Origin: Candidatus Latescibacterota bacterium
Lineage (GTDB): Bacteria; Latescibacterota; UBA2968
Assembly (NCBI GenBank): GCA_965204375.1
Contig: OZ241986.1
Coordinates: 4,416,001-4,480,000, forward strand
Direction: 5' to 3'
Length of the DNA: 64,000 nucleotides
The position numbers were made by a program, and so were the translations under genes. The notes beneath the pieces are model-generated. The model had not been told where the DNA came from. It did not search any database and was given only the letters and a program-made list of their open reading frames with translations. Shown here piece after piece: positions 14,208-37,349 of this stretch (its first letter is position 1; the number at the start of each line of letters is the position of its first letter).

Positions 14208-14236
14208 TTGTCCTTTGTGATTGAATATATCACTTT

Positions 14237-17536: not shown

Positions 17537-17663
17537 TGGTCAGCCCCTACCCATTCAGCCTTCAATCTTCAGTAGTCATTCCCTAATTTCACATATCCAT
17601 TCCCAATCTCCCGTATCCAGCCTCTCGCTTTTTAGCGGTCATGGTTGGTCAACGGACAGCCAC

Positions 17664-17709
17664 AAGTGCCACATTTATGTTCCAAAAGTGGAACATAAAT
17701 GTGGCACTT
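17664..17709. promoter_or_regulatory. Perfect 21-bp-arm palindrome, candidate upstream activator site
   Basis: aagtgccacatttatgttcca-aaag-tggaacataaatgtggcactt, ~105 bp upstream of the -24 element. Confidence 0.6.
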
Positions 17710-17813
17710 AATCCCTTTTACTCTTACAGCACTTTAAAATATAAAAGTTTTATCTACTTGTCTATCAAGCACTTGAGTGTCTTCAAGTACTTTTTTTATT
17801 CTGAACGAATTTA

Positions 17814-17829
17814 TGGCACGCATCTTGCT
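17814..17829 (+). promoter_or_regulatory. sigma54 -24/-12 promoter
   Basis: TGGCACGCATCTTGCT, exact GG-N10-GC spacing. Confidence 0.85.
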
Positions 17830-17882
17830 CTATAGCAATGTGCGAGACAATAACAACAATCAGATTTTTGATGAGGTGACTT

Positions 17883-18071
17883 ATGACTGCTCAAATAAAA
17901 ATAAAAAGACGCGATCATTTGGCTCATCTCTCCTTGCTCTATGCCATCTGGGGCGATGAAGCCCGATCTGAAGCCTTGCACACGATGATACGTAGAATGA
18001 GCCAGCAAAATAGAGAGATAGACCAGCAATCGTTATTGGCTGGTGAAGTGTGTTTCTATCCGGCAAAATAA
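17883..18071 (+). CDS. Conserved small protein (62 aa), first ORF after the sigma54 promoter
   Basis: GAGGTG RBS; homologous to 46257..46460. Confidence 0.7.
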   Translation: MTAQIKIKRRDHLAHLSLLYAIWGDEARSEALHTMIRRMSQQNREIDQQSLLAGEVCFYPAK

Positions 18072-18126
18072 GCATATATGGACAACAATAAAAATGTAAT
18101 ATCTACGCAATCCAGGGAGGTTTCTC

Positions 18127-19887
18127 ATGGCAAATTCAGAATTATATCGCGTATCGTCCTATACGATTTGTGTCAAGCTGCCTGAAGATCCAAATTACAC
18201 TTTGCTCGTTCACGGCTATACGGGCGCAATAGATAGAGTGAATAAAGAAGTCGCTCAGATGATCAAAAGCAAGGTTGTTCTCTCGGAAGATATGTTTGAT
18301 CAACTGCCTTGTTCAAAAGGGACGATTCATACTTTAATGAAGCGTGGCTATCTGACCAGTCGTTCTCCTGTGGAAGAACGAGAATACGTGCATAGCATGG
18401 CGAATTTTCTCCACCATACCTCAAGTCGAGGTGCCGCATCTTTCCTTTTCTTAGTGGCCTACGATTGCAACTTCCGCTGTCCCTATTGTTATGAAAATGA
18501 CATTTCATCTCATGGAAAGGGGTGGTCAAAACAGGTCTTTACAAAGGAATTGGTTGACCGCGCATATCAGGCTATGCTTGAAATCCAACCGAACAGAGCC
18601 ATACATAGCAAAAATATCACTTTGTATGGTGGAGAGCCTTTGTTAAAAAAAAATAAAGAGATTGTGCAGTATATCGTAGATGAAGGTTTGAAACACGGTT
18701 ACACTTTTTCTGCGATTACAAATGGATATGATCTTCACCATTTTACGGATTTATTAGGTCCCCAAAAAATCAGACGTCTCCAGATTACCTTAGATGGCGA
18801 AGAAGAAAATCACAATCTCAAGCGTCCACATTATCGTGCAGGAGATAGTTTTGATGCGATCATGAAAAATGTGGCACTTGCTCTGTCGCTTGATGTGCAA
18901 GTTTCAATGCGAATCAATACAGATTACGACAATGTGGATATTTTACCTGCATTATTTGATTTGTTCAAAGATAGAGGATTTACAGAGTATCCGAAATTTT
19001 CGGCCTATTCTGCATTGGTGCATCAGGTTGAAGAGAGCCTGTCCTGTAGTTCTACCATGTCAGGAAAAAAGACGCCAGGCAATTATGGCCAGACGACACC
19101 TCTGCTTTCTATTGAATCACCAGCATCAGATTTTGAACCCTCTGAGTCTGTTGCCTCTGTCATATCCTTTAAGGAGAGTAAGACTCAGAAACAAAAAACT
19201 TTTGATCATGAAGAATTTGAACTCCAAGCACAGTTGCACACTGCTTCTGAAATGCTCATAGATGAAGAACAATATATCAATGTGGAACAAGAAGAAAAAA
19301 TTTTCTCGAACTACCAAAACGGCACACGCCCAGTTGGTCTTCATGAACTCTCTCAAGAGATGGAGTCAAACCATCTCGAGAATCGAAAAATTCCTGTTAT
19401 GCCGAGAAGAGAGTTTACACGCAAATATTATCAATTTGCTAAAGAAAATCCTGACTTGATGCATCAAATTTCTTGCCAAGACTATGGCATTAGACAGAGT
19501 TTCAAACAGGCCCTTGATGGTAAAGGTCTGTTGAGTTTTAAACCCATCTTCTGCGGGGCGCAGAACCGTATGTTGATCCTCGATCCTTATGGAGATCTCT
19601 ATACATGTTGGGAAATGGTGGGTTTAGATCGGTATAAAGTTGGTAGCTATATCAATCAAGTTGAATTCAATGATGAACGTTTATCAGAATGGTATGATCG
19701 GAATATTTCCAATGTACCGTCTTGCAGTAAATGCAAATATGCATTCTTTTGTGGTGGAGGGTGTGCTGCACATGCATTTATAAAAAATAATGGAAATGTC
19801 AACACATCCTATTGTGATGAGTATCCCAGGATTTTCCATACAGTTGTGCCTGAGATATTTGAGGAGCAAAAACAAAAAACCTTATAG
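18127..19887 (+). CDS. Radical SAM/SPASM peptide maturase
   Basis: CNFRCPYC, YGGEPL and SPASM cysteines (FCGA...YTCWE...CSKCKYAFFCGGGC...YC); RRE-like N-terminus. Confidence 0.93.
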   Translation: MANSELYRVSSYTICVKLPEDPNYTLLVHGYTGAIDRVNKEVAQMIKSKVVLSEDMFDQLPCSKGTIHTLMKRGYLTSRSPVEEREYVHSMANFLHHTSSRGAASFLFLVAYDCNFRCPYCYENDISSHGKGWSKQVFTKELVDRAYQAMLEIQPNRAIHSKNITLYGGEPLLKKNKEIVQYIVDEGLKHGYTFSAITNGYDLHHFTDLLGPQKIRRLQITLDGEEENHNLKRPHYRAGDSFDAIMKNVALALSLDVQVSMRINTDYDNVDILPALFDLFKDRGFTEYPKFSAYSALVHQVEESLSCSSTMSGKKTPGNYGQTTPLLSIESPASDFEPSESVASVISFKESKTQKQKTFDHEEFELQAQLHTASEMLIDEEQYINVEQEEKIFSNYQNGTRPVGLHELSQEMESNHLENRKIPVMPRREFTRKYYQFAKENPDLMHQISCQDYGIRQSFKQALDGKGLLSFKPIFCGAQNRMLILDPYGDLYTCWEMVGLDRYKVGSYINQVEFNDERLSEWYDRNISNVPSCSKCKYAFFCGGGCAAHAFIKNNGNVNTSYCDEYPRIFHTVVPEIFEEQKQKTL

Positions 19888-19986
19888 TGTATATAAACTC
19901 TTAAGAGAAAGGAGACATTATATTTTGATGCTGATATAAACGAAGATGTCATCTCTGTTTAATTTTCAATCAAGGAGGGTAGTATC

Positions 19987-20235
19987 ATGTCTTCCCCAGT
20001 GTCTTCAGAAGCCGATCTCAAAGCGCACATAGCGTCATACCCTGAACTTTACGAGGATCTGGCTGTTGATGTTCTTGAAGAACGTTTGGAAATGTGGTGT
20101 GTTTGCGATAGTTTGGAGTGCATTTGTGATGAGTTTGAGTGCATTTGTGATGAGTTTGAGTGTATTTGTGATGATCTTTGTATTGATTGTTGGACTGATT
20201 TTTGTGTGATTGATCTGTGTGATATTGATTCTTAG
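19987..20235 (+). CDS. Cys/Asp/Glu-rich RiPP precursor peptide
   Basis: AAGGAGGG RBS; Cys-free 36-aa leader ending LEERLEM; 46-aa core with 12 Cys; directly after the rSAM gene. Confidence 0.85.
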   Translation: MSSPVSSEADLKAHIASYPELYEDLAVDVLEERLEMWCVCDSLECICDEFECICDEFECICDDLCIDCWTDFCVIDLCDIDS

Positions 20236-20634
20236 AAGATCTTTAGAACCCCAACTGTCTTTACACAATGAATCTTCGTGGTCAAGGCCACTCATATTGT
20301 TTTGCAAAAATATAGGTGGTCTCGATCATTCTTAATACTTTTTTGTCGCGCTTGGGGATTCACCAAAGAATTTTTAGAATTGCGATAAAACGAATAACTT
20401 ATACTAATCGTATGAATTAACTTTGCATGACATTTTAGGGTATTTTCGAGAACGATGGCTTGACTGTATTTTGATACGCAGAATAGAATAGGCATGCAAA
20501 TCTGATTACAAATGCAAGATTTCTATTTCTGATTAGTATTACTTATTTAATGATTATATTGCTCGCCAAAGCGTGCTACAACTCGTCTGGCTTCTCTAAT
20601 CATTGATCGCGTAAAATATTCAGGAGGCATACTG

Positions 20635-21528
20635 ATGGTCATTCGCATTTCAAACTTGGCAAAAACATATCGACGCGGTGATACGCCAGTACTAGACGAT
20701 GTCACTTTGAGCATCCCACACGGCACATTTGGTCTGTTGGGACCCAATGGCGCGGGAAAAACTACGCTAATCAAAATCCTGTCGACCCAAATGGACGCAT
20801 CGAGCGGCAACGTTACCATGGATGATTTCGATTTGGTCCAAAACCGCGCAGAAATTCGGCATCGCATTGGATATTTGCCTCAGCATTTTGGCACCTATCC
20901 CCAACTCACCGCTTGGGAATTTCTCGATTATATGGGCATTTTGGGCGGTATCCACAACAGGACAGAGCGTCTAAATCGCGTAGAGCAAGCTCTAAACGAA
21001 GTCGGGTTATACGATGCACGCAAGTGGCACACGGGCACGTTTTCCGGTGGCATGGTGCGGCGTCTTGGCATTGCACAGGCCATTTTGACCGATCCAGAGT
21101 TTCTCATTGTCGATGAACCCACCGTGGGGCTTGATCCGGAAGAACGCATCCGGTTTCGAAGTATTTTGGGACGCTTGAGCAGCGATCGCGCCATTTTGAT
21201 CTCCACGCATATTGTAGGTGATATTTCGAGCACTTGCAAGGATATCGCAATTTTGAATCGTGGACAACTGGTCTTTCGCGGCTCCCCATCAGACCTGATT
21301 TCAAAGGCGGATGGCAAGACGTGGCAAATACAGGTTGATGAGCCCCACTTTGAAAAGCTGTCGCGTGTGTTTCATGTAGTGACGGTCAATGTTGAAGGGG
21401 ATCGCATGAGTGTGCGAATGGTGGGCGATGGCGATCCTCTCGCTGATGCCGAAGCAGTCTCGCCCAATCTGGAAGATGCGTATCTCTATTTTATGAGTGG
21501 CGACATTACTGATGAAATCGCATCGTGA
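20635..21528 (+). CDS. ABC transporter ATP-binding protein
   Basis: GPNGAGKTT, FSGGM and VDEPT. Confidence 0.95.
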   Translation: MVIRISNLAKTYRRGDTPVLDDVTLSIPHGTFGLLGPNGAGKTTLIKILSTQMDASSGNVTMDDFDLVQNRAEIRHRIGYLPQHFGTYPQLTAWEFLDYMGILGGIHNRTERLNRVEQALNEVGLYDARKWHTGTFSGGMVRRLGIAQAILTDPEFLIVDEPTVGLDPEERIRFRSILGRLSSDRAILISTHIVGDISSTCKDIAILNRGQLVFRGSPSDLISKADGKTWQIQVDEPHFEKLSRVFHVVTVNVEGDRMSVRMVGDGDPLADAEAVSPNLEDAYLYFMSGDITDEIAS

Positions 21529-21620
21529 AGATAAAAAAGAAGAAACTTTCTTATTGATCACCAGCCTTGGGCGGTGTAGGTGGTCCTTTTAAGTCTTGTC
21601 CTTGGAAAAGGAGTAATACC

Positions 21621-24600
21621 ATGTTATCTGCTCTTCATAACATACTCGGTGTTGCACGTTACGAGTGCAAAATGCTTTTGAGAACCACAAAATTTCGCAT
21701 TTTGGGTGGATTGACAGTGTGTATTTACGTTTGCTTGGGCATTAATTTTGCCTTGGGATTTTGGAATAAAGCACACAAAGGACTTGAAGGATACGAGTCT
21801 TATGTTCTGTTTCTCGTATACACTACCTTTCAGGCCCTTGTCATTCCATTTCTTGCAGGATCTTTTAGAACTGCTGACGAAAATGCCCATATTTATGAAG
21901 TGGTTGCTGGGCGTCCTATTTCGACAGCAGCACTCGTTGTAGGTAAGTATTTGGGCACTGTCAGTGCGTTTTTCTTTTTTAGTCTTAGTGTTCTGATTTT
22001 GGCCTTGAGCATCCAAGCAGCAGAGATCAGCATGGCGGATAATCCATTTACTATAGAACCTTATCTGTTATACCTTTTGCTCTTGAACTTTCCCACTCTG
22101 ATTTTTTTATCTTCTCTTACATTTTTTCTGGGGGTCTTGCTACGTCGGCCAATAGCTGCTGCCTTGATTGTAACTACATATTCGTTCGCTGCCATATTAT
22201 TCTTCTCAGGTAGTCAATATTTCAACGTGGGATTTGACTTTCTTGGTTTAGATGACTACATGGGTTATTCGGATCTGATGGGTATAGGGAATATTACACA
22301 AGTGGGTTTGCAACGCCTGTTTTACGTTTTGCTCGGCATTGGCTTTTTGGGATTGGCGATTGATCGATATCCCCGTCTTGCACACTCCATGAACGCGCAA
22401 TGGTTTGGTCGCGGATGCGCTCTAACCGGTTTTGGATTGACCACAGGTCTTTACTTTTTTTTTCATGCGGATGTGCAAAACCGGCAGACATATCGCCAGT
22501 CATTGCTCGCGCAACAGGAAGCCGTTGCACATATTCCCGTAACAGAAATCACTCATTATGACTTGGCAGTGACACTTCTGGGCAAAGATCTGCTCTCAGC
22601 CTCTGGCAAGATCATCTTAAAAAATAATCTTGAAGTACCTCTTGATACACTGATTCTTTCACTCAATCCCGGACTGAAAATTCAAAGCCTGATGCAGGAC
22701 AATGGTAGCAACATTGAATGGGATCGGACGGGAAGTGTGATCCGCGTCATGCCAGATGCTCCTTTGCTATCGGATCAAGAACTCGGTCTAAAACTAAATT
22801 ATGCAGGGGATATTGACACAGATGGTTTTGATCTCAAACGAGAAAAAGGCAAATCTAGGTTTTTGCCAGGGCGGATGGGCATGGGATTTTTAACGGCGTG
22901 GATTCGCGATAATTCCATCTTTTTGCCTCCACGCAGCCGATGGTATCCGGTAACGGGCGTTGATTATGGCTACAAGCATGCACGTCCGGCCTCTTTTTCA
23001 ACAGCAAACTTGCACATCACCTTCCCGCAAGGTCTCGAAATCATTACCCAAGGGCAGATAGGCAAGACCGATACCCTCGGCACACAAGTGATCCGCCAAT
23101 GGGTTGTTGAAAATCCCGTACCCGTCCTGTCTCTGAACGCGGGTGTGTATTGCGTGTATCGTGCCACCATTCACGACATCGAATGTGCCCTTTACGTGCA
23201 TCCATCACATTTGCGCTTGATCCGCTTTTTTGAAGATGCTGAAGAAGAGGTTGTGCGTGCGCTTGGGCAAATCGTGGATATGATGGAACAGGAATCAGGT
23301 ATGAAATATCCCTACCCCAATCTCTCTTTAGTGGAAATTCCGTTCCATATTCAGTGGTATTACGAAGGCTGGGAAGAAAAGGGGGGCCTGACGCTACCGG
23401 GCGTGTTGATGATTGAAGAAAAGGTACTTGCAAGGCAGAGTTTTACCCACATTTATAAGCCTTATCAACAGCAATTGAGTGTCAACCGAGAACCTAAAAA
23501 TCTAAAAAAAGACCTTCTGGTACGCGCTGTTTTAGAAACCTTTTTTGCAGAAGAAAGTGCGAATAGTGGGCTTTTTCGTAGCCCTGTTTTTCAACTCTGG
23601 GCTTATGACAAGAATTTTGTGGGCGATCATTATGCTCTGCTCAAAAAGGGCATGCCCCTATACCTTCAGAGTAATTTGAGAAACGATATGGCATCTGCTT
23701 TTTTTTCACGCCGCCGACAGCGTAGTGGGGTTAGCAGAGGGTCAAGCAAGGATTGGAATAGATTGACCGCCAAGATGCAACGGAAGTCGTTTGCCGATTT
23801 AGACCCCGAACAAGAGGCTAAACTCTATCGCCAAGTGCTTGACGTAAAGGGGCCGGGACTCTTTGAGATGATGGCGTCCTTTTTAGGTGAAGAAACCTTC
23901 CGCACCCTCATATCTGACATCAACCAGAATTATAAATATAAGGACATTGATTTTTCGACCTTTGAACGTGCCGCTGTGGGCTATACAGAAGATGAAGATC
24001 GCTTGAGACTACAGCGCTTGGTCAAAGATTGGATATTTAGCACAGAAATCCCAGGCTATACCCTGACAAGTGTAAAAGCCTTAAAGATAGACGATGGCTC
24101 TGGGATATTGGCCTATCAATTGATTGTGCGGATCAAGAACAGCGAACCCGGTAGGGGCTATGTGCAAATTACTGCCTTAAGCGAAAATGATGAGGCGATA
24201 AAAGGCGTCGAGATTGAAAGTGGACAGGAAATTGAAGTTTCGATGGTGCTGTGGGAGCAGCCCTTGCGGGTGATCATTGAACCCTTTTTTGCACGCAACC
24301 GCCAACCGCTCATATCCCCTGTGCGTGTTCCTGAACAGGTTACAAAGGGAGCTCCCATTGCCTATCTTAAAGATGTGACAGGAGAGGAGGATATGACTCA
24401 TGCGGATACGGATCCTATTGAAATTATTGTAGATAATGATGATAAAGGATTTTCAATGCCCATTCACCGCGTGACACGCTTCTCGCGTCCCGGCCTCAAA
24501 GGGGGTAACTGGCGCGAGCGTAGCCTGCCAGTAGCTTATGGACGATATGCAAAAAACTATCGGCAGAAGAAACCGGGCGATGGCGCACAACCTGCTGTGT

Positions 24601-24935
24601 GGACCGCACAAATTCCCAGAGATGGTGAGTTTGATGTGAGCTTCTATTTTCCCGACCAGGCAACAGCTAAGCGCGAGGGTATTGCACCAGCCTTTACCCT
24701 TACTGTTTTTCACGCGGGTAAGGTCGATACCCTTAAAATGGAGCGCGACCTTATGAAAGCGGGCTGGAATCACCTAGGGCGATACAAATTTGTCAATAGG
24801 GAAGAGGCTGTGGTCGAATTGTCTGACCGCGCAGAGGGGGTCCTATATGCTGATGCTGTGCGCTGGCGTTTTGTGGATAAACTCATTCCTCAACAGGCTT
24901 TCTTCGATCCACAAAACCCCGGTGCCCATAGGTAA
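21621..24935 (+). CDS. ABC-2 permease fused to an M1-aminopeptidase-like region (no HEXXH) and a golvesin-like C-terminal domain
   Basis: N-terminal TMs (VVGKYLG); M1-like beta domain (HYDLAVTL, WYP, YPYPNLSLVE); C-terminal GWNHLGRY...ADAVRW. Confidence 0.7.
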   Translation: MLSALHNILGVARYECKMLLRTTKFRILGGLTVCIYVCLGINFALGFWNKAHKGLEGYESYVLFLVYTTFQALVIPFLAGSFRTADENAHIYEVVAGRPISTAALVVGKYLGTVSAFFFFSLSVLILALSIQAAEISMADNPFTIEPYLLYLLLLNFPTLIFLSSLTFFLGVLLRRPIAAALIVTTYSFAAILFFSGSQYFNVGFDFLGLDDYMGYSDLMGIGNITQVGLQRLFYVLLGIGFLGLAIDRYPRLAHSMNAQWFGRGCALTGFGLTTGLYFFFHADVQNRQTYRQSLLAQQEAVAHIPVTEITHYDLAVTLLGKDLLSASGKIILKNNLEVPLDTLILSLNPGLKIQSLMQDNGSNIEWDRTGSVIRVMPDAPLLSDQELGLKLNYAGDIDTDGFDLKREKGKSRFLPGRMGMGFLTAWIRDNSIFLPPRSRWYPVTGVDYGYKHARPASFSTANLHITFPQGLEIITQGQIGKTDTLGTQVIRQWVVENPVPVLSLNAGVYCVYRATIHDIECALYVHPSHLRLIRFFEDAEEEVVRALGQIVDMMEQESGMKYPYPNLSLVEIPFHIQWYYEGWEEKGGLTLPGVLMIEEKVLARQSFTHIYKPYQQQLSVNREPKNLKKDLLVRAVLETFFAEESANSGLFRSPVFQLWAYDKNFVGDHYALLKKGMPLYLQSNLRNDMASAFFSRRRQRSGVSRGSSKDWNRLTAKMQRKSFADLDPEQEAKLYRQVLDVKGPGLFEMMASFLGEETFRTLISDINQNYKYKDIDFSTFERAAVGYTEDEDRLRLQRLVKDWIFSTEIPGYTLTSVKALKIDDGSGILAYQLIVRIKNSEPGRGYVQITALSENDEAIKGVEIESGQEIEVSMVLWEQPLRVIIEPFFARNRQPLISPVRVPEQVTKGAPIAYLKDVTGEEDMTHADTDPIEIIVDNDDKGFSMPIHRVTRFSRPGLKGGNWRERSLPVAYGRYAKNYRQKKPGDGAQPAVWTAQIPRDGEFDVSFYFPDQATAKREGIAPAFTLTVFHAGKVDTLKMERDLMKAGWNHLGRYKFVNREEAVVELSDRAEGVLYADAVRWRFVDKLIPQQAFFDPQNPGAHR

Positions 24936-25030
24936 TGAACTAGCCGCGTTTATGTTTGACCGAGGCAGACATGTCCCCAAAGAAACCTCATTTACCTTTT
25001 ATTTTTAAATTCATTGTGAAAGGTATAGTT

Positions 25031-27550: not shown

Positions 27551-27687
27551 TTCTGTAATCTTTTGGGGAATACTACGCTCCTCAAGGAAACATGCCGGAG
27601 TAACTATAGGGCCTATGAATGCTGGTCCAATGTCCCCGCAGTGGTTTACGAATTAATCCACAAACCGTTTTCAATAAGGATATTAAC

Positions 27688-28695
27688 ATGAATAAACATT
27701 TACCATCAGATCCCTTTGAATCTCTTGAGGATGAAATTTCTTCACTGAACTTTGGTCTTCAGGATGATCTTTCAATCAAAAAATCCGAAGTCGAATTTTA
27801 TCAATTCATGTCGCAGATTTGTGAAGAATATAATCTGGAGGCAGCGTTACAACAGTATCCCGTATTTTTAGCCACTGATTTACATACTTCCTTTACATCG
27901 CAGTTCTCGGAGGTATTTGTCTTAGACGAAGATACGCATCAGAAATTGTATTTTGTCAATCGAGCACTGTATATCTATACGTCGTATATGGATAGTGTTT
28001 TGGATGATCGAAAGACTCTTAAAGCAGATGCCTATTTTTTAGCTTCTCTTTTGAGAGATCATGCATTTGGTCTTCTCAATGACTTATTTCCCCCATGTTC
28101 GGATTTTTGGGCCTTTGCCAAAAAGTATCAGCGTTGCGCCATTGCTGCAACACTACAAGAAAGAATAAAATGGAATAATCCCACATCTTATTCATTGGAT
28201 GAGGCATTTAACATTGCCTCTGGCAAAGCCGCCACAGCTCAGATGGTGACAACGGCTTTAGCCTGTTTGTCCAATTCTTCCGAGTTGATCCCTCCCTTTG
28301 AAAAATCTTTAGATGCCTTTTTTATGGGCTTACAATTTCATAATGATCTTAAAAATTGGCGATCAGACTTTATCGCTGGAAGATATTCGTATCTTTTGAA
28401 TCAAATTATTGAAAGAAAGGAACTTCACGAAAAATTAGAATCCGTTACCATGGAAGAACTGGCGCGTATGATTTACTTTACAGGGTTGGTAGAAGAAATT
28501 CTCGATCATTCAATAGATTGCTACAGGCAAGCCTTGTCGTATGTTCATCAATTACCCTGCACGGACTGGAAGATTGCGATTGACCGTAGCATATCTGAAA
28601 CGTCTGTTTTGCTCCGCAACTTGCAAAAACATAAGGAGCAAGAAATTGATCGGGTAAGTAAACTTGTAATGGAAAAGAAAAACAAAAGCCCTTAG
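27688..28695 (+). CDS. Class I isoprenoid-synthase-fold protein (prenyltransferase/terpene-synthase-like)
   Basis: Helical character with Asp-rich-like motifs DSVLDD and QFHNDLKNWRSD, plus SGKA. Confidence 0.6.
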   Translation: MNKHLPSDPFESLEDEISSLNFGLQDDLSIKKSEVEFYQFMSQICEEYNLEAALQQYPVFLATDLHTSFTSQFSEVFVLDEDTHQKLYFVNRALYIYTSYMDSVLDDRKTLKADAYFLASLLRDHAFGLLNDLFPPCSDFWAFAKKYQRCAIAATLQERIKWNNPTSYSLDEAFNIASGKAATAQMVTTALACLSNSSELIPPFEKSLDAFFMGLQFHNDLKNWRSDFIAGRYSYLLNQIIERKELHEKLESVTMEELARMIYFTGLVEEILDHSIDCYRQALSYVHQLPCTDWKIAIDRSISETSVLLRNLQKHKEQEIDRVSKLVMEKKNKSP

Positions 28696-28715
28696 AGGCG
28701 AGATAGGAATACACC

Positions 28716-30023
28716 ATGCAAGAATCCTTACCAGACCCGATTAAGTTGGTTCCCGAAATTTCTATGTATAAATTCGATACCTCTTTGGTAGAGAAGAGTT
28801 ATGTTTTATGCATCGGTACGAAACGGTTTGAAATAAGCGAAGGTATCTATCAACTCATAGAGTTGATAGATGGAAAAAGAACACTGTCTGAAATTGCAAG
28901 CGAATACTCTGCTATCAGGAATAAGACATACTCTGCCAAAGACATTGAGGCAATTATTCATTCATTTCTCGTGCCTTATGGAATCATCGCAAACACCACC
29001 TCAGATGACGATACTCAAACAAGTAATTCGTATTTTTATTTTCAATACCCTTTTATTCGAGTGAATGCGGTTCATGCCGTCAGTAATTTTCTCAAGATTC
29101 TCTATCATCCAAAAATTCTGATTTTCTTTATTCTATTCTCTTTTGTCTTTTTGTTGTATTTCTGTTTTTTTGTGTTCTCAGTCATAGATTTTACTATTTA
29201 TGATATTTCGTTTCGAGATGCGATTCTAATACTGATGATTTTTGGAATTTTAGGAATTTTTCACGAGTTAGGTCATTCTTCAGCTTGTGCTCATTATGGC
29301 GCGTCACCTGGCGAGATTGGGGTAGGCTTGTATCTGCGCTTTCCCGTTCTTTACTCTGATGTAACAGATGCTTGGAAGCTACCGAGAACGCAACGCGCGA
29401 TGGTGGATTTCGGCGGCATATATTTTCAGCTTATTTTTGTTCCTATACTCTTCATCTTGTATCTAACGACATCAAGTAGCGTATTTTTGTATGTCATTCT
29501 TTTTAACTACGGATCAGCACTGTTTAATTTGAATCCGATTTTCCGATTTGATGGGTATTGGCTTTTTTCAGATATAGCAGGTGTGCCAAATCTCAGGAAA
29601 AGATCTTTAGAAATTCTAAAATACTTTGCCAAGCGTTTCATTTTAAGGCAGAAAGAGATTGTCGAACCTGTCTTTCTGCGCATCAGTGGGAAAATAAAAT
29701 CGTTTCTTTGTGTGTATGGAATTGTCAGTACGAGCTTCTTCATTTTGTTCTTTTACAAGATTTTTTTTCTTTTTCCCGATTTGGTTTTAAATTATCCCGG
29801 TCTCGTATATAAGACTTTTAGCGAGATAATAAGCGGCTTTGCCGTTGGAGATTGGCAAACTGTTGGGCGTGCCCTTTCCAGCTTCTTTTTTCCTTCCCTG
29901 ATCATTTTGATGTTAAGTTTTGCTACATATCGAATGATGAAAAGGATAATGAGATTGACAAAGACCGTAGTGCGATGGGGAATACAAGTGACACGACACT
30001 TAAAAACACCAGGAATACACTGA
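28716..30023 (+). CDS. M50 (site-2) membrane metallopeptidase with N-terminal PqqD/RRE-like domain
   Basis: HELGH and NLNPIFRFDG; N-terminal LIELIDGKRTLSEIA. Confidence 0.85.
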   Translation: MQESLPDPIKLVPEISMYKFDTSLVEKSYVLCIGTKRFEISEGIYQLIELIDGKRTLSEIASEYSAIRNKTYSAKDIEAIIHSFLVPYGIIANTTSDDDTQTSNSYFYFQYPFIRVNAVHAVSNFLKILYHPKILIFFILFSFVFLLYFCFFVFSVIDFTIYDISFRDAILILMIFGILGIFHELGHSSACAHYGASPGEIGVGLYLRFPVLYSDVTDAWKLPRTQRAMVDFGGIYFQLIFVPILFILYLTTSSSVFLYVILFNYGSALFNLNPIFRFDGYWLFSDIAGVPNLRKRSLEILKYFAKRFILRQKEIVEPVFLRISGKIKSFLCVYGIVSTSFFILFFYKIFFLFPDLVLNYPGLVYKTFSEIISGFAVGDWQTVGRALSSFFFPSLIILMLSFATYRMMKRIMRLTKTVVRWGIQVTRHLKTPGIH

Positions 30024-30033
30024 GGAGGTAAGT

Positions 30034-31224
30034 ATGAATATCTGCTTGATTACCTACCAGTATCCACCATACCCAGGAGGAGTTGGAAGTGCAATGTATC
30101 GAATTGCCAAAAATTTGGCAAAACAGGGTGTCAATATCCACATTATCGCGCCAGGTCCTCATCAATTAAGGGATAAAATCTCACCTGTCATAGAAGACGG
30201 TGTGACAGTACATCGAACATTTTCAATATTATCAGATTACCATGCTGATCCGCATAGTTTACAAGTACTTGGCGAATATATTGTAAAACTCCATCAAAAA
30301 CAGAGTTTTGACTTGATCCATGCAGCTTTTCTTATGCCACCTGGGTTCTTAGGTGCAATCGTGGCTACAGAGATTGAGTGTCCCCTTATCGTCAGTATTA
30401 GGGGCAATGATTGGGAGGTTTTGCGATATAGCATCCAACACTTGGCGAATCTAAGGTGGGTATTAGAAAGAGCCGATTATGTAACATCAGTATCTCATGA
30501 ACTCATGGAAAAGATGCGCCGAATGGTAAGAATCAAAGCAGGAAAAGTCCTTTCCAATGTGTTTGATGCGTCAATATTTGATGCACGTTTACTTTCAGAA
30601 ATAACAGAAGAGCATAATAATAGACTGCAGGTACTTACGGAAACCTTTTTTCGGATGAAATCAGAAGGTAGATCAGTCATCGGAACTGCTGGATTTCTGC
30701 GGCCTAAAAAGGGGTTTCACATTCTTTTACGAGCATTTGGAGGGATTGTTAAAGCTTATCCCAATACTTGTTTGCTCGTTGTAGGACAGTTTGCACAAGA
30801 ATCCTACAAAAGAGATATGTTGCAGCAGATCAGTGACCTGGGTATCAAAAGGCAAGTTTTATTTACAGGTTATATTCCACACCGAGAAGTATTAGCGTGG
30901 ATGAGAGAGATGGATATTTTTGCATTCCCTTCGCTTCATGAAGGTTCACCAAATGCACTGTTGGAGGCGATGGGTTTTGGACTTCCTATCGTGGCTTCCC
31001 AAATCGGTGGTATTATCGATATAGTTGAAGATAATAGGGATTGCCTTATTGTTCCCGGCGGTGACGCCGGTAGGTTATCCCAAAAATTGCAACTATTACT
31101 TGAAGATACAGAACTCAGAAAAAGACTTGGTAAGGCCGCAAAACATAAAGTGGAAAACCAATTTTCTCCAACTCAAGAAACAGAACAGTGGCTTGACATC
31201 TATCACCGTATATTGAATAACTGA
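30034..31224 (+). CDS. GT4 glycosyltransferase
   Basis: YPPYPGG, KKGF and HEGSPNALLEAMG. Confidence 0.92.
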   Translation: MNICLITYQYPPYPGGVGSAMYRIAKNLAKQGVNIHIIAPGPHQLRDKISPVIEDGVTVHRTFSILSDYHADPHSLQVLGEYIVKLHQKQSFDLIHAAFLMPPGFLGAIVATEIECPLIVSIRGNDWEVLRYSIQHLANLRWVLERADYVTSVSHELMEKMRRMVRIKAGKVLSNVFDASIFDARLLSEITEEHNNRLQVLTETFFRMKSEGRSVIGTAGFLRPKKGFHILLRAFGGIVKAYPNTCLLVVGQFAQESYKRDMLQQISDLGIKRQVLFTGYIPHREVLAWMREMDIFAFPSLHEGSPNALLEAMGFGLPIVASQIGGIIDIVEDNRDCLIVPGGDAGRLSQKLQLLLEDTELRKRLGKAAKHKVENQFSPTQETEQWLDIYHRILNN

Positions 31225-31300
31225 TGTTACGCAGCTTTAAGCATTTGTAGTTCATCGAAAGCATATTGAAATAGCTCTGAGTGGACTTGACCCGTTTTAG

Positions 31301-31428
31301 ATGCTGTTGCCGAATTCCGAATTCTGTCCCGATGCAACTGAGCATAGGTCTTACAGAGCCTGAATTGCGACCCCAAACAGCCGTTTTTCCTACCGCAGGC
31401 TCCCTCTCGATCAATTCGGCAACAGCAT
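31301..31428. mobile_element. 128-bp MITE, copy 1, inside the IS3 left IR
   Basis: 16-bp TIR ATGCTGTTGCCGAATT; 8-bp duplication CGTTTTAG. Confidence 0.85.
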
Positions 31429-32658
31429 CGTTTTAGTGGACAACTTATCTCTTTCAGAGAAAGGAGTCCAAAATGGGCAAAAAAAGATCATATCCAGCAG
31501 CATTTCGCCAGCAAATGGTCGCGCTGGTCAGATCGGGTCGTAGTGCCAACGATTTGGCCAAAGAGTTTGAACCCACCGCCCAGACGATCAGTGCCTGGGT
31601 GCGTCAAGCAGATCGCGATGAAGGCCGTCGAGACGATGGGTTGACCAGTCGTGAGCGAGTAGAACTTCAAAGGCTTCGTAGAGAGAATAAACGCTTACGA
31701 CAAGAGCGCGAAATCCTTGCAGAAGCCGCGGCCTGGTTCGCAGCGGAGACCGATGCGATACCCAAAAAATCTTCAGATATATAAAGGCGCATCAGGCCAT
31801 CTATCCGATCACCATGCTATGCCAAGTGCTGGGCGTCTCCACCAGCGGGTATTATGCCTGGTGTCATCGACCTGTATCTAAACGGGCAAAGGACGATGAA
31901 AAGTTGACAGAACAAATAAGCACCTTTCACCAGCGTTCCAATGGGACCTATGGCGCACCTCGTATCTTATCTTTCAGGATCTGCGAGAAGTAGGTGTTCA
32001 CACCAGTCGTAAACGAGTTGCAAGACTGATGCGACAAGCCAATATATGTGGTCTCAGCCGAAGAAAAGGTATCCTGACAACATTCTATCACAGACGAGAA
32101 AGTCCCTGATCTGGTTAAGCGAGACTTTAGAGTTGATAAACCGAATAAGCTGTGGGTCGCTGATATTACCTACATAAAAACCTGGTCTGGCTTTTTGTAT
32201 CTATCTGTTGTCATAGACGCCTTCTCCAGACGTGTGGTTGGTTGGGCAATGGCCTCACACTTGAAGACGCAACTGGTCTTAGATGCTCTGGATATGGCAC
32301 TTTGGAACCGACGATCAGATGGGGTCATTCATCATTCGAATCAAGGGTCTCAATATACCTCCTACGCTTTTGGTCAACGCTGTGCAAAAATGGGGTCAGA
32401 CCCTCTGTTGGATCGGTTGGCGATTGTTTTGACAATGCCTTGTGTGAAAGCTTCTTTGCCACCCTTGAGTGCGAGTTGATAGACCGACATAGCTTCCCCA
32501 ATCATAGCCAGGCCAAACTGGCGATCTTCGAGTATATTGAAGGGTGGTATAATCCACACCGCAGGCACTCTGCACTGAAGTACCAATCGCCCATCACCTA
32601 TGAAAAACTGATGGCAAAAGGTGATTGGGTTGAAAGTTCGACACTATCCACTAAAGCG

Positions 32659-32786
32659 GTGCTGTTGCCGAATTCCGAATTCTGTCTCAATGCAAATAAA
32701 CATAAGGCTTACAGAGCCTGAATTCAGGCCACAAACAACAGTTTTTCTAACCGCAGACGCCCTCTTGACCAATTCGGCAACAGCAT
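32659..32786. mobile_element. 128-bp MITE, copy 2, inside the IS3 right IR
   Basis: Same TIR with one mismatch; duplication CTAAAGCG/CTAAAGTG. Confidence 0.85.
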
Positions 32787-32863
32787 CTAAAGTGAGGTAA
32801 CTCCAAGGTTTCATAAATTGGTTGTGATATCTACCAGAAGCGATGCGAGAGGATAAGACTTCA

Positions 32864-33658
32864 ATGAATCTAAACAATCCCATTTTTATTGTGGGCTGTG
32901 GACGAAGCGGAACATCAATGCTTACAAACATGATGGCAACTCATGAGGATATCGCGGTTTTTCCTCATGAAGGTAATAATTTTTGGCACCCAAAATCTTA
33001 TCCATGGCGACAATCGAAGGGCAATAGAGTACCTATATGGTTAGATCCACGCTGTTTTACACACACTTCATTACAAGATTGGACCGATCAGGACAAAAAA
33101 AAAATAAAAGACACGTTCACCAAATTTCAAAGAATATCTAATAAGGAATATTTCCTAAATAAAAGTACTATGATCATTTTTATGATTGACTTTATTTTAG
33201 AGTTATTTTCCGAAAGTCGTTTTATTCATCTGTATCGTGATGGTAGAGCTGTTGCGTTTTCTCATGGCAGGCGAGAATCTGTAAAAATGCAATTAGATCC
33301 CTTACTCTACAAAACAAGAGGTGTTTATTATTCTTGCGCCACATTATTTGAGAAGTGTGCTATAGCTTGGCGAGATCAAATATTAGAAATGGAGTCACAG
33401 ATAAAAAAACTGCGAAAACGTGGTATTATTCACGAATTGAGTTATGAAACTCTTTGTGAAAGTCCCATTCACTCCCTCGTTGGAATAGCATCCTTCTTAG
33501 GAGCGGATCCAAAGAAGTTCCAAAGAGATATTATTCCCTTAACAAAGAATATGAACTACAAATACAAACAAGCCCTAACACCTTTCTTCATAGACTATTT
33601 AACTGAGTTGATGAAACCTGCGTTAAAAATAAAAGGGTATTTACCGGCAATTGCATAG
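32864..33658 (+). CDS. PAPS-dependent sulfotransferase
   Basis: IFIVGCGRSGTS (5'-PSB), IHLYRDGRAVAFS (3'-PB) and LSYETL. Confidence 0.88.
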   Translation: MNLNNPIFIVGCGRSGTSMLTNMMATHEDIAVFPHEGNNFWHPKSYPWRQSKGNRVPIWLDPRCFTHTSLQDWTDQDKKKIKDTFTKFQRISNKEYFLNKSTMIIFMIDFILELFSESRFIHLYRDGRAVAFSHGRRESVKMQLDPLLYKTRGVYYSCATLFEKCAIAWRDQILEMESQIKKLRKRGIIHELSYETLCESPIHSLVGIASFLGADPKKFQRDIIPLTKNMNYKYKQALTPFFIDYLTELMKPALKIKGYLPAIA

Positions 33659-33757
33659 GAAATTATTATAAGTGCATGGAGTTACCCAACGTCAGCGTCG
33701 AAATCCACAAACCATTTGAGCTTATTAAACAATACTTCGGACAGTTTTTAGGTGTAG

Positions 33758-34660
33758 ATGACCGATGAGAAGCCGGTGGTTTCCTGCCACAATCGGCTTA
33801 GAGAAGCCCTCTATCCGAGTTGCTTGCGTCCAACAAGGGAGGTGAAAAAGTATTACGAGCGCACAATCCGGGACTTATCCATCACTTGTCTGCGCGTTGC
33901 GCGCAAGCAGGCGGGTCGCGCAGTCTATCTGAAGTTGGAAGAACGACAGTTTTTCTGCTCTGACTGCACGCGTCATTTTAGTGAACGCTTCTCCTTTGTC
34001 CGGCCTAATCGAACCACCACAACCCGTTATGAAGCCTACCTTTTTGAGCGTTGTGAGAAGACGCCGATCTCTCAGATAGCAATTTTGGAGAACCTGTGCT
34101 GGGTCTGTGGTGCAGGCGATTTATGTACGTCACGCCAACGATCATATCGCAAGTGCCGAAGGAGTGCGCTTTCTCGGCATTGACGAGTTAGTAGGGACAT
34201 AAAAGCTATGTCATGAGACAACTTCATCAGGCACTTGACAAGTATCGTCGTGCCATGCGCCAGCAGAAGAACCCGGATGAAGAAGCACTCAAACACCTTA
34301 AGTGTATCTTACTTAAAAATTTAGAATACCTAATTTAAGAAGAACCTACACGCATAGAACAGGCATTTCAAGCTTTCCCTCAACTCGAACAAGTCTGGCA
34401 ATTGAAAGAAGACCTGTTCCTGCGATTTGAAACTTCGATATCCGGATCTGTTTGTGGGCACGCTTGAAAGGTGGCGAAAGTATATTGTCGCCTTCTTTCA
34501 GCACCTGCTTGCGCGGAAAACCTGTACACAGGCAAGTCGGATTACGAATAGACTGATGGAGGGCATCAATAATCTGATCAAAACCATCAAACGAATGGGG
34601 TATGGTTTTCGCAACTTCGACCACTTCCGCATAAGAGTCCTCTGCGAATGTCGAGGATAG
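33758..34660 (+). pseudogene. ISL3-family transposase remnant
   Basis: RTIRDLSI...CSDC zinc-finger region, GIDE and EGINNLIKTIKRMGYGFRNFDHFR in broken frames. Confidence 0.85.
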
Positions 34661-34726
34661 ACGCTCAGCCTAAAAATCTTACATAAACCAAATTCAAAAA
34701 TAACTTTCTGATCTCGTGAGGAGTAT

Positions 34727-35809
34727 GTGAAAATTATCCTTGTTGCAGGTGCGCGGCCCAATTTTATGAAAGTTGCCCCGCTGTGGAATCAACTGACCGA
34801 GACACCCGATTGGTTTGAGCCGATTCTGGTGCATACGGGCCAACACTACGACGACCTCATGTCCGAGATTTTCTTGCGAGACTTAAATCTACCCAGACCG
34901 CATTATGAATTGAATGTAGGGTCGGGCAGTCACGCGTATCAGACGGCGCAGATCATGACGGGTTTTGAGAAGGTTTTATCGTTGGAAAGACCGGATTGGG
35001 TGCTCGTCGTTGGGGACGTAAATTCCACTTTGGCATGTGCGATGGATGCCGCAAAATTGCAGATTCCCATTGGACACATAGAGGCAGGGTTGCGAAGTTG
35101 GGATCGGTCGATGCCCGAAGAGATCAATCGAATCGTTGTGGATGCCATATCTGATCTTTTGTTTGCACCCTCGAAGCAGGCGTGTGAAAATCTAAGGCGC
35201 GAAGGCATAGAAGATCGCCGCATTCATTTTGTGGGCAATGTGATGATCGATTCTCTGATGTTGCTATCCCCCAAAGCCGATGAATCCCGCATCCTGGACA
35301 TACACGGTTTATCGGTTCGAGAATACGTTTTTCTAACCCTCCATCGCGCCTCAAATGTCGATTGTCCAGATACGTTGGCTGGCATTGTATCCGCGTTGCA
35401 AACCCTCAGATGTCCAATCGCATGGCCTTTGCATCCGAGAACCCGCAATCGCCTGTCCCAATTTGGTTTTTTGAAAAGGCTTGGGAAGATGCGCCATATC
35501 AAACTTATGGATCCCGTTGGCTACCTCGATTCTTTGAAACTTCAGAAAAATGCAAAATTTGTGATGACAGATTCCGGGGGATTGCAAGAAGAGACAACGG
35601 CTTTGGGGGTGCCGTGTTTGACGCTTAGAGAGAATACAGAACGACCAGAGACCATAAATATTGGGACGAATACACTTGTGGGTGTTTGTCCCGAACGCAT
35701 TGTTGCAGAGACTGAATCTGTTTTGAATGGGCAGTATAAATCCGGTTGCTTGCCCGAGTTGTGGGATGGTAATGCCGCAGAGCGTATCGTTGCTGTATTA
35801 AAAAATTAA
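34727..35809 (+). CDS. wecB: UDP-N-acetylglucosamine 2-epimerase (non-hydrolysing)
   Basis: GARPNFMK, HTGQHYD, HIEAGLRS and TDSGGLQEE. Confidence 0.93.
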   Translation: MKIILVAGARPNFMKVAPLWNQLTETPDWFEPILVHTGQHYDDLMSEIFLRDLNLPRPHYELNVGSGSHAYQTAQIMTGFEKVLSLERPDWVLVVGDVNSTLACAMDAAKLQIPIGHIEAGLRSWDRSMPEEINRIVVDAISDLLFAPSKQACENLRREGIEDRRIHFVGNVMIDSLMLLSPKADESRILDIHGLSVREYVFLTLHRASNVDCPDTLAGIVSALQTLRCPIAWPLHPRTRNRLSQFGFLKRLGKMRHIKLMDPVGYLDSLKLQKNAKFVMTDSGGLQEETTALGVPCLTLRENTERPETINIGTNTLVGVCPERIVAETESVLNGQYKSGCLPELWDGNAAERIVAVLKN

Positions 35810-35854
35810 TCCTGTCCTAAAAATCAAATAGATTTGCTCTGAGAGGATGACACA

Positions 35855-37201
35855 ATGGCTATAACAGAAAGATTACCCTGGAGAATCGCCGATCCCATAC
35901 ATCTGCTAAAAGAGAAGATCGCCTCGCACGAAGCGCAGGTGGCAGTGATGGGATTGGGATATGTGGGATTGCCTTTATCTGTGGCATTGGGTAAGGTGGG
36001 ATTTTCCGTCACGGGAATCGATACATCGGCGCGCAAAGTAGAGCTAATAGAATCGGGAAAGTCCGATGTGCAGGGTGTATCGGAATTTGAGGTGACAAGT
36101 CTTAAAACTGTGGGGAAATTGACAGCGACTCGAGAATGCGATGTGCTCAATGAGGCCGATGTGGTGGTGGTATGTGTGCCCACACCCTTGAATAAAGCAC
36201 GCGACCCAGACGTCTCATTTATACAACAAGCATGTGATGCAATCAAAGACCGACTGCACTGCGGACAACTGGTGATTCTGGAGAGCACGACATATCCAGG
36301 TACGACTCATGAACTGGTATTGCCCCTTCTCGAAGAAAGTGGCTTGAAGGTTGGACGAGATTTTTTTCTGGCATTTTCCCCAGAGCGCGTCGATCCGGGC
36401 AACAGGGTTTATACCATCACCAACACGCCCAAAGTCGTGGGTGGTATTACCCCGTCTTGCACAAAAATAGGCACGCATTTTTACCGACAATCGATCGGCG
36501 AAGTCGTACCGGTCTCATCGACCCAGGCAGCAGAAATGACCAAGTTGCTGGAAAATACTTTTCGCAGTGTAAATATCGGCCTTGTCAATGAAGTGGCCCT
36601 GATGTGTGACCGCCTGGGGGTGGATGTTTGGGAAGTAATCGATGCCGCAGCGACCAAGCCGTTTGGATTTATGCCGTTTTATCCCGGTCCTGGGTTGGGC
36701 GGGCATTGCATCCCGGTTGATCCTCACTTTCTGGCCTGGAAGCTCAAGACCTTGAATTACAATGCGCGCTTTATCGAATTGGCCAGCGAAGTGACGCGTA
36801 GCATGCCGGGCTATGTGGTCGAAAAAATCACCGACGCACTCAACGAATACGAGCGGTGTTTGAAAGGCTCGAACATCCTGATATTGGGCGTGACGTATAA
36901 ACCCGATGTACGCGATATTCGCGAGTCTCCGGCATTGGATATTATAGAAATGCTTCAGGAGAAAGGGGTGAAGGTCTCGTATTGCGATCCGTTTGTAGAT
37001 CACTTGCAGACAGAAAGCCTGGACTTGAAGAGCATTACTTTAAATAAAAAAAATACAACTGAAGCCCATTGTGTGGTGATAGTGACACATCACAGCAATT
37101 GGGATTATGAATGGATAGTAAGGCACGCGCGTTGTATTGTCGATACGCGCAATGCCACGCAGGCTGTATCTGGCAAGAAAGATCACGTTTTTAAATTATA
37201 G
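35855..37201 (+). CDS. UDP-HexNAc dehydrogenase (WecC/WbpA family)
   Basis: GLGYVGLP, ESTTYPGTT and GGHCIPVDP. Confidence 0.92.
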   Translation: MAITERLPWRIADPIHLLKEKIASHEAQVAVMGLGYVGLPLSVALGKVGFSVTGIDTSARKVELIESGKSDVQGVSEFEVTSLKTVGKLTATRECDVLNEADVVVVCVPTPLNKARDPDVSFIQQACDAIKDRLHCGQLVILESTTYPGTTHELVLPLLEESGLKVGRDFFLAFSPERVDPGNRVYTITNTPKVVGGITPSCTKIGTHFYRQSIGEVVPVSSTQAAEMTKLLENTFRSVNIGLVNEVALMCDRLGVDVWEVIDAAATKPFGFMPFYPGPGLGGHCIPVDPHFLAWKLKTLNYNARFIELASEVTRSMPGYVVEKITDALNEYERCLKGSNILILGVTYKPDVRDIRESPALDIIEMLQEKGVKVSYCDPFVDHLQTESLDLKSITLNKKNTTEAHCVVIVTHHSNWDYEWIVRHARCIVDTRNATQAVSGKKDHVFKL

Positions 37202-37349
37202 CATCGGAGTCCTTGTGGGCTTTTCCTATGAGGGCCTCGCTGATGACTTCTCAGGCACCTTTAGTTCTGCGTTCAGTATTGAAAAGAGCGAGTCCTTTTT
37301 GGCTCGTTCTTTTTTTAATTTAAAATGCCTATTCATCATCATTGCAAGT

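Follow-up and report, generated by a model that had tools for sequence, protein, structure and literature searches.

A 64,000-nucleotide stretch of the genome of a Candidatus Latescibacterota bacterium (assembly GCA_965204375.1, contig OZ241986.1, positions 4,416,001 to 4,480,000; hereafter the window, to which coordinates refer unless stated otherwise) carries what is probably a sigma54-activated operon for a peptide natural product of ribosomal origin, belonging to an uncharacterised family that is widespread in the Fibrobacterota-Chlorobiota-Bacteroidota (FCB) group. Judged from its sequence, the locus is a genuine operon for a peptide that is synthesised by the ribosome and then post-translationally modified (RiPP) and a variant of the thioether-type radical S-adenosylmethionine (rSAM) RiPPs, and the family to which it belongs is widespread and uncurated. 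A maturase, a precursor and a peptidase are its core and recur in the FCB-group loci found.

A preliminary description of the window had proposed a RiPP pathway with an rSAM/SPASM enzyme, a Cys-rich peptide, an M50 peptidase that has a domain like a RiPP recognition element (RRE), and the ATPase and permease of an ATP-binding cassette (ABC) transporter. The analysis supports a RiPP locus of this composition; gene families were assigned from Pfam and NCBIfam scans of the open reading frames (ORFs) of the window. The source genome is referred to below as G000 (the window being G000:C1:4416001-4480000), its relatives as G001, G006, G008, G009, G016 and G019, and a second copy of the locus within the source genome (loci L016 and L017) as G000b. 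The genes of the locus described below all lie on the + strand.

Maturase, precursor and peptidase

The maturase (18127-19887) is an rSAM/SPASM protein of 586 amino acids that matches Pfam Radical_SAM and the NCBIfam SPASM model TIGR04085 (60.3 bits, cutoff 27). It contains a CX3CX2C motif at residues 114-121 (C114, C118, C121), seven C-terminal cysteines in the SPASM region (476, 494, 533, 536, 542, 546 and 563), an N-terminal extension and an insertion of ~150 amino acids at about residues 300-450. Its best-matching NCBIfam equivalogs are thioether maturases, namely CefB (2e-37), PapB (3e-34) and the geopeptide maturase (7e-34), with SCIFF also among them, and the closest solved structure is that of CteB (5wgg, 2e-18).

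The precursor gene (19987-20235) was recognised as a Cys-rich ORF with a leader/core pattern, and encodes an 82-residue peptide composed of a 36-residue leader ending in RLEM and a 46-residue core that contains 12 Cys, 10 Asp and 5 Glu but neither Lys nor Arg. Six precursors from the genus share the near-invariant leader …SSEADLKAHIASYPELYEDLAVDxLEERLEM, and their cores diverge strongly (3-12 Cys, 7-13 Asp, 0-2 Lys plus Arg); as read from the alignment, a constant leader joined to a variable core is the classic RiPP signature. The locus has in this respect what is expected of thioether rSAM RiPPs: next to the maturase gene, a precursor whose leader is conserved and whose variable core bears Cys. 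No curated NCBIfam model was found for the precursor. Elsewhere, small ORFs directly 3' of homologous maturases encode a leader of the form LNxxLYDxFxxxELEERLET/M followed by Cys-bearing tails, and the ELEERLE(T/M) leader occurs beside maturase homologues in Bacteroidota, Ignavibacteria, Kryptoniota and other phyla.

The third core protein (28716-30023), identified by NCBIfam comparison, motifs and an AlphaFold2 (AF2) model, joins an RRE-like domain to an intramembrane metallopeptidase of the site-2-protease (S2P) type (M50-like), and is the probable leader peptidase. It carries HELGH at residues 183-187 and NLNPIFRFDG at 271-280, and the HELGH and NxxPxxxxDG motifs are invariant in 21 homologues; its match to Pfam M50 falls below the cutoff (17.9 versus 27.2 bits). 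The daptide HExxH protease model NF041824 was matched over residues 35-357, including the N-terminal domain (2e-36, 125.7 bits, cutoff 300), and the YydH/LiaK model NF058609 more weakly (1e-12, 48 bits, cutoff 225). In the AF2 model (predicted local distance difference test score, pLDDT, 86) the N-terminal domain forms three strands followed by three helices (residues 15-84, pLDDT 77-94). The top Foldseek rows were S2P, SpoIVFB, PqqD, TbiB1 and lasso B1, none of which reached E<=1e-3 and all of which are weak leads; for PqqD, TbiB1 and lasso B1 the template modelling (TM) score on the target was ~0.65, at a weak E of 0.1-0.5.

Between precursor and peptidase lie the genes of the exporter. The ABC transporter ATPase (20635-21528; Pfam ABC_tran, 7e-31) has a counterpart of 86% identity in G008. 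The ABC-2-type permease (21567-24935) is 1122 amino acids long and includes a large extra domain; its hydrophobic segments lie within residues 43-265, it matches Golvesin_C (4e-15), and its matches to ABC2_membrane_3 and Peptidase_M1 are below cutoff. The M1-like stretch was considered as a leader peptidase and rejected, as it has no HExxH motif and its Pfam match is below cutoff. In G019 a permease homologue stands directly upstream of the maturase.

Within the relatives compared, the maturase is found in 5 of 41 genomes at E<=1e-20 (in G009 as a partial match only), and among 168 genomes of the phylum in four at E<=1e-40, all of one genus. G008, G001 and G019 each have one maturase locus and the source genome has two. 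The second copy (G000:C1:3563562-3603561) encodes a maturase of 84% identity and a precursor with an Asp/Gly/Ser-rich tail, and its genes run in the order precursor, DUF5686/CarboxypepD_reg protein, isoprenoid-synthase-fold protein, peptidase, methyltransferase, GT4 glycosyltransferase, 250-residue protein, S41 peptidase and NAD-dependent epimerase/dehydratase. A 4374-bp contig labelled Gammaproteobacteria (L020, VXYV01000119.1) carries a maturase of 81% identity and the start of a matching precursor, and may come from the same genus through misbinning.

A wider scan that took one genome per species found maturase homologues at 80 loci, most of them 40-50% identical, in Bacteroides, Prevotella, Phocaeicola, Elizabethkingia, Saprospiraceae, Balneolaceae, Ignavibacteria, Melioribacteraceae, Kryptoniota and Calditrichota. 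A peptidase homologue was detected by tblastn in 61 of them; the 19 without one include many short contigs. The Bacteroidales loci carry, in place of the glycosyl genes of the window, a CarboxypepD_reg protein and a ~700-residue protein (32 sources), the latter having Wzy_C (O-antigen-ligase-like) and TPR domains in the one member scanned. In the gut Bacteroidales set (loci L028-L091, e.g. L030:5450-17218) the genes form a fixed set of TPR protein, DUF3244 protein, 650-residue protein, maturase, precursor, ~770-residue CarboxypepD_reg protein, peptidase and ~700-residue protein, and in five loci (L046, L047, L050, L051 and L059) the CarboxypepD_reg protein and the peptidase are fused into one protein of 1094-1097 amino acids. 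A metagenome scan with alignment A1 returned seven loci, all at <=49% identity and none a new close locus, and a scan with alignment A3 found no relative.

Comparison with known systems places the locus near the ranthipeptide/SCIFF maturases PapB, CteB and CefB, with which it shares an rSAM domain, a SPASM domain with seven auxiliary cysteines, an N-terminal extension of the leader-binding kind and a Cys-rich precursor encoded alongside. According to one study, PapB links Cys to Asp/Glu (PMC9413430), and the core encoded in the window, like the substrates of PapB, is rich in Cys together with Asp/Glu. Unlike these systems, the window has a maturase with a ~150-residue insertion and sub-cutoff scores, a different leader motif, and an RRE-S2P peptidase and an isoprenoid-fold protein as partners. 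The Bacillus yydFGHIJ epipeptide locus, cited in the preliminary description as having the same layout, likewise combines an rSAM enzyme, a small peptide, an M50-type membrane peptidase and an ABC transporter. In that system YydG is an epimerase, whereas the maturase of the window has a SPASM domain and thioether-type relatives, its substrate has a Cys-rich core, and the peptidase is below the YydH/LiaK cutoff. The best-scoring named relative of the peptidase, although below cutoff, is the daptide intramembrane HExxH metalloprotease (NF041824); Pfam showed no other daptide-type tailoring genes in the window locus.

The GG-Bacteroidales rSAM-peptide system, which was defined computationally, belongs to the same bacterial group. 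It includes a GT4-type glycosyltransferase (TIGR04157), as does the window locus, but both glycosyltransferases of the window reach 61-69 bits where the cutoff is 400, and the window leader is without a GG-type motif. Sponge-associated Latescibacterota have been reported to contain antiSMASH 'ranthipeptide' and 'RRE' clusters, given without detail for the metagenome-assembled genomes concerned (PMC12993501). The main text of PMC10352776 contains neither 'M50' nor 'TPR', and its supplementary tables may list Bacteroidales members. In the curated families and the literature searched, no description of this RiPP family or gene combination was found, in keeping with the earlier statement that no characterised RiPP class was known to have this combination.

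The isoprenoid-synthase-fold protein

Upstream of the peptidase gene lies a gene (27619-28695, probable start 27688) for a protein of 358 amino acids, whose AF2 model, built with 13 homologues, has an all-alpha isoprenoid-synthase fold (pLDDT 80.9). Foldseek matched this model at E<=1e-3 to 77 chains of the PDB. Those listed are without exception prenyl or polyprenyl diphosphate synthases, with TM scores of ~0.5-0.7. The earlier guess at an isoprenoid-synthase fold is supported by these matches. Instead of DDxxD, the family has the motifs DxxxD and (D/N)Dxx(D/N)WxxD, seen in the window protein as D125-x3-D129 and N242-D243-x2-N246-W-x2-D250, and we take the spacing of the second to resemble that of terpene-synthase metal-binding motifs. 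In an alignment of the window protein with 130 long relatives, D125, D129, D243 and D250 are retained in 122-128 of the 131 rows.

The family is most often met as part of a larger protein. For clustering of all ORFs around the maturase, 80 sources were used (the window, the second copy and 78 loci, L093 and L097 having been left out for too weak a maturase match), and the family was present in 18 of these, 14 of them outside the genus. Eleven of the 18 members form the N-terminal half of a protein of ~650-740 amino acids (L062, L067, L078, L083, L085, L086, L023, L025, L026, L088 and L096), the C-terminal half of which is a SQHop_cyclase_C toroid (45-62 bits against a Pfam cutoff of 26), with a DxDD(L/T)A motif in six fused sequences (alignment A2). 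Next to these fused genes are those of RRE-S2P peptidases and rSAM maturases. When 1.84 billion representatives were searched with a profile, 6731 proteins matched at E<=1e-3, of which 2052 reached E<=1e-10 and 639 reached E<=1e-30; among 149 sequences from the best 150 profile matches, 130 are 600-760 amino acids long, and 47 of these 130 fused relatives have a strict DxDD-type motif. Close homologues of the window protein numbered 22.

When 401 genomes of another phylum were searched for this family only, it was found in nine, and at five of the seven loci derived from that search a peptidase gene, an rSAM gene or both are adjacent (L125 is on the same Ignavibacterium contig as L052). Because the family co-occurs with the peptidase and the maturase across phyla, we regard it as a dedicated partner of the peptide system, and its distribution suggests that it behaves as an old one. 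Prediction of a complex between residues 24-358 and the precursor scored 0.02 against a mark of 0.32 and, being without controls, is evidence neither way.

An all-helical isoprenoid-synthase-fold enzyme with two Asp-rich motifs in a RiPP locus is a feature shared with the prenyltransferases ComQ and PalQ (for PalQ, PMC10853753). Unlike ComQ and PalQ, the window protein has no polyprenyl_synt match, and its relatives are fused to a squalene-cyclase-like toroid.

Transcription unit, glycosyl genes and an insertion

From 16043 to 37314 all substantial ORFs in the ORF list are on the + strand, and the intergenic gaps from the ABC ATPase gene through the GT4 gene measure 10-68 bp. The gene order and the promoter were found as the preliminary description had them, and its observation of a same-strand gene run behind a sigma54 promoter is thereby confirmed. 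The run is preceded by a sigma54-dependent response regulator (16043-17536) with receiver, AAA+ sigma54-interaction and Fis-type helix-turn-helix domains (Response_reg 6e-30, Sigma54_activat 6e-70, HTH_8), an orthologue of which, 89% identical, is upstream of the G008 locus. Downstream of the regulator gene, a palindrome that can be read from the sequence as a 20-pair inverted repeat with a 20-bp stem (17664-17709) is probably the enhancer at which the activator binds; it lies upstream of a -24/-12 promoter, TGGCACGCATCTTGCT (17814-17829, + strand). The strict pattern searched (TGGCAC-N5-TTGCW) matched the window twice where 0.10 matches were expected, a count that none of 100 shuffles reached. 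In all four other genus loci an element with one mismatch lies 75-369 bp upstream of the maturase gene, at a chance rate of ~0.1 per 4.1 kb of single strand (a hand estimate from the strict pattern). A GG-N10-GC promoter and a cognate AAA+ activator upstream, the marks of a sigma54-dependent operon, are both present.

The small ORF described earlier corresponds to one candidate that held and one that did not. A 62-residue ORF between promoter and maturase (17883-18071), known from its translation, looks real: it has counterparts in G008 (76% identity) and at a second regulator unit of that genome (67%), has no Pfam or NCBIfam match, and is absent from the loci of G001, G019 and G000b. The ORF at 17641-17835 was rejected, as it overlaps the palindromic upstream site and the promoter and is therefore probably no gene. 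After the last gene, the best terminator-like hairpin (37281-37314, 14 pairs followed by a T run, + strand) is the probable end of the operon; terminator-like sites over the region as a whole (23 against 18.2 expected) are not above chance, and a sigma70-like scan of the region was likewise at chance level overall.

Four genes of the run have predicted glycosyl functions. A double glycosyltransferase of 864 amino acids (24956-27550) combines, by Pfam, a GT4 half (~27-441) with a GT28_C-type half (Glyco_tran_28_C); it has a relative of 88% identity in G008, and G019 has a relative (64%) of the GT4 half only. The second half was not equated with a GT1 of G001, the match being weak (E 0.002 over 101 amino acids). 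A separate GT4 (30034-31224; Pfam Glycos_transf_1, 3e-34) follows the peptidase. At the end of the operon are a UDP-N-acetylglucosamine 2-epimerase of the WecB type (34727-35809; Pfam Epimerase_2, 8e-109) and a UDP-sugar 6-dehydrogenase of the WecC type (35855-37201; the N, central and C domains of Pfam UDPG_MGDP_dh), the latter with a second copy of 93% identity elsewhere in the source genome.

Copies of the GT4 at 80-86% identity occupy three different chromosomal sites: in G008 and G001 they immediately follow the peptidase, and in G000b one gene intervenes. Among 21 genus genomes, copies with >=77% identity are found only in RiPP-type loci, four intact in three genomes plus a truncated remnant in G006, and the next relatives are at <=50%. 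The G006 remnant (L132, G006:C1:2340000-2359900, at ~12743-15345) retains GT4 residues 149-396 at 77% identity, followed by the same c21 and S41 genes as in G000b; no maturase, isoprenoid-fold protein or peptidase is present there.

The GT4 and WecB genes of the window are separated by a 3.5-kb strain-specific insertion (31225-34726) that comprises an IS3 remnant (~31282-32805), a sulfotransferase gene (32843-33658) and an ISL3 fragment (33758-34183), the insertion sequence (IS) parts being identified by Pfam HTH_Tnp_1, rve_3 and Zn_ribbon_ISL3. The earlier remark that the run is broken only by IS debris was right about the IS3 and ISL3 remnants, but the sulfotransferase itself lies inside the IS-flanked insertion. 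Its ORF is intact, has a full-length Pfam match (Sulfotransfer_3, 6e-23) and is unique within the source genome. G008 is collinear with the window from regulator to WecC yet lacks 31225-34726, and its GT4 stop overlaps the WecB ORF, so that the two are joined directly. In contigs of sequencing runs X4 and X6 positions 31224 and 34727 are separated by 20 other letters, and in runs X1 and X3 the insertion is present. The sulfotransferase occurs in one of five genus loci. Since it lies in an IS-flanked insertion missing from relatives, sulfation as a conserved step is not supported, and the gene is, by this comparison, a recent strain-specific arrival with IS elements, outside the conserved pathway. 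The IS3 remnant is bounded by 128-nt hairpin-forming repeats (31302-31429 and 32660-32787), which have ~25 BLAST hits across the source genome and look like a small mobile or repetitive extragenic palindrome-like element.

Just past the terminator the window encodes a 760-residue patatin-like phospholipase (37642-39924). A second sigma54 unit follows (43297-50867), in which genes at 43297-46004, for a PAS histidine kinase and for a sigma54 regulator, precede a promoter, TGGCACAAATTTTGCT (46186-46201), a 566-residue protein without a Pfam match and a MacB/FtsX-type permease. Further downstream is a C-5 cytosine DNA methylase (55402-56358).

Proposed pathway and rival readings

From gene content, folds, motifs, synteny and co-occurrence, which are observed, we infer each chemical step of the pathway, including thioether rings, lipidation and glycosylation. 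The response regulator would bind the palindrome and open the -24/-12 promoter. The RRE-type domains of maturase and peptidase would bind the 82-residue precursor through its conserved leader, and the rSAM/SPASM enzyme would cross-link the Cys/Asp-rich core, most likely through thioethers from Cys to Asp/Glu or from Cys to C-alpha, like those of ranthi- and sactipeptides. The membrane S2P-like enzyme would cut the leader off near RLEM, and the ABC ATPase and permease would serve for export of the product or for protection of the producer. The isoprenoid-fold protein would most likely ionise a prenyl diphosphate and attach it to the peptide, like ComQ, and lipidation is plausible. Glycosylation is possible: the GT4 after the peptidase may act on the product. 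WecB, WecC and the double glycosyltransferase would have been recruited from a polysaccharide locus found at the same site in a sister genome, and may supply or transfer sugars of the ManNAc(A) type. Sulfation is unlikely. This ranking, with the GT4 as a likely genus-specific pathway member and WecB, WecC and the double glycosyltransferase as recruited polysaccharide genes, is based on the layered distribution of these genes in the genus.

Several observations weigh against the proposed pathway, either in whole or for particular enzymes. The maturase passes no curated family model (PapB, SCIFF, CefB, CcpM and others), with 129 bits against 600 for CefB and 119 against 340 for PapB, and as its scores are far below each curated cutoff, the type of cross-link cannot be predicted from them. 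Within 40 kb of the G019 maturase there is no isoprenoid-fold protein, peptidase or member of the window GT4 clade. The isoprenoid-fold protein has no Pfam polyprenyl_synt match at E<=0.01, nor any other Pfam hit, has Asn at positions 242 and 246 where 123-124 of the 131 rows have Asp, and is without the toroid domain present in most relatives. The missing Pfam match and the two Asn residues are also what would favour regarding that protein and the toroid of its relatives as a peptide-binding scaffold, a cyclase or immunity proteins, comparable with the LanC toroid that acts on peptides, as would the limitation of the strict DxDD-type motif to 47 of the 130 fused relatives. Such a role seems to us rather unlikely, given that the Asp pairs of both motifs are kept in nearly all rows (122-128 of 131), that the structural matches listed are all prenyl or polyprenyl diphosphate synthases and that the toroid passes the SQHop_cyclase_C cutoff at 45-62 versus 26 bits.

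The tailoring genes were found to travel with homologous rSAM-peptide pairs only in part: the isoprenoid-fold family is present in 18 of the 80 clustered sources; across the 80 loci of the scan WecB, WecC and the sulfotransferase are found in none and the GT4 only in three loci of its own genus and as one weak match (L022). The evidence on glycosyltransferases is likewise limited to one genus (five loci in four genomes, which are kin and not independent). The absence of WecB and WecC from the 80 loci, with the single weak GT4 match outside the genus, would fit a transcription unit that serves two unrelated functions. One would be a simple thioether RiPP, to which maturase, precursor, peptidase and exporter belong and perhaps the isoprenoid-fold protein, and the other a sigma54-controlled surface-glycan module in which the double glycosyltransferase, GT4, WecB and WecC act on a lipid-linked or polysaccharide acceptor and not on the peptide; we consider it a serious but less favoured alternative. 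At the same chromosomal site G016 has the same flanking genes, a regulator of 83% identity and a one-mismatch sigma54 element, and behind them WecC, WecB and GT4 genes without a maturase. That operon (L106, G016:C1:178500-197576) encodes WecC, a 422-residue protein with a weak likeness to squalene cyclases, WecB, two GT4s at 48% identity, a redoxin and an NHL protein. WecB, single-copy in the source genome as fits a general cell-surface role, has orthologues in 13 of 21 genus genomes versus four for the maturase, mostly in maturase-free polysaccharide contexts; in ten WecB contexts from nine genomes no rSAM gene is nearby, and G001 and G008, which are among these, carry the maturase at another site. 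The double glycosyltransferase is in its first half closest to TIGR04063, a PEP-CTERM/XrtA exopolysaccharide-system glycosyltransferase (4e-97, 325 bits, cutoff 442), and has relatives at 42-45% identity in maturase-free polysaccharide loci; WecB and WecC, too, occur without the maturase. Against a split into two functions, the >=77% GT4 clade is never seen away from RiPP-type loci in the 21 genomes and stays downstream of the peptidase at three chromosomal sites, the glycosyltransferase genes are interleaved with the peptide genes and not appended to them, and the G001 and G000b loci contain other sugar genes of their own (a GT1 and an NAD-dependent epimerase/dehydratase).

The fullest version of the preliminary description, one product that bears thioether bridges, a prenyl group, sugars and also sulfate, could appeal to all genes sharing a strand, with a single promoter before them and a single terminator after them, and to the intact sulfotransferase ORF with its full-length Pfam match. 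We regard it as very improbable, the sulfotransferase being confined to an IS-bounded 3.5-kb insertion that is missing from G008 and from the X4 and X6 contigs, and occurring in one of five genus loci and none of the 80 related ones. The composite product of the preliminary description is supported only in part.

We retain the reading of a sigma54-activated operon for a RiPP of an uncharacterised FCB family, with an unusual terpene-synthase-like partner and, in this genus, a probably dedicated GT4. A bolder extension of it, which we put forward only as a speculation and think improbable as a whole, is that these loci make hybrid peptide-isoprenoids: a thioether-bridged acidic Cys/Asp peptide would be prenylated by the terpene-synthase-like alpha-domain enzyme, the chain would in most relatives be cyclised by the fused class-II-like DxDD toroid, and in this Latescibacterota genus ManNAc(A)-type sugars would be added by the dedicated GT4. 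If that were true, a new RiPP class would extend from sponge-associated bacteria to human-gut Bacteroides and Prevotella.

The locus would illustrate how accessory modules, such as glycan genes and IS-borne genes, are bolted onto a RiPP core, and it would caution that same-strand neighbours should not all be read as tailoring enzymes. If our reading is correct, it defines an unnamed RiPP family with maturase homologues at ~40-50% identity in many FCB lineages, including common gut genera. It would also tie a large orphan family of terpene-synthase-like alpha+toroid proteins (639 clusters at E<=1e-30) to peptide biosynthesis, from which peptide prenylation or cyclisation chemistry without precedent could emerge.

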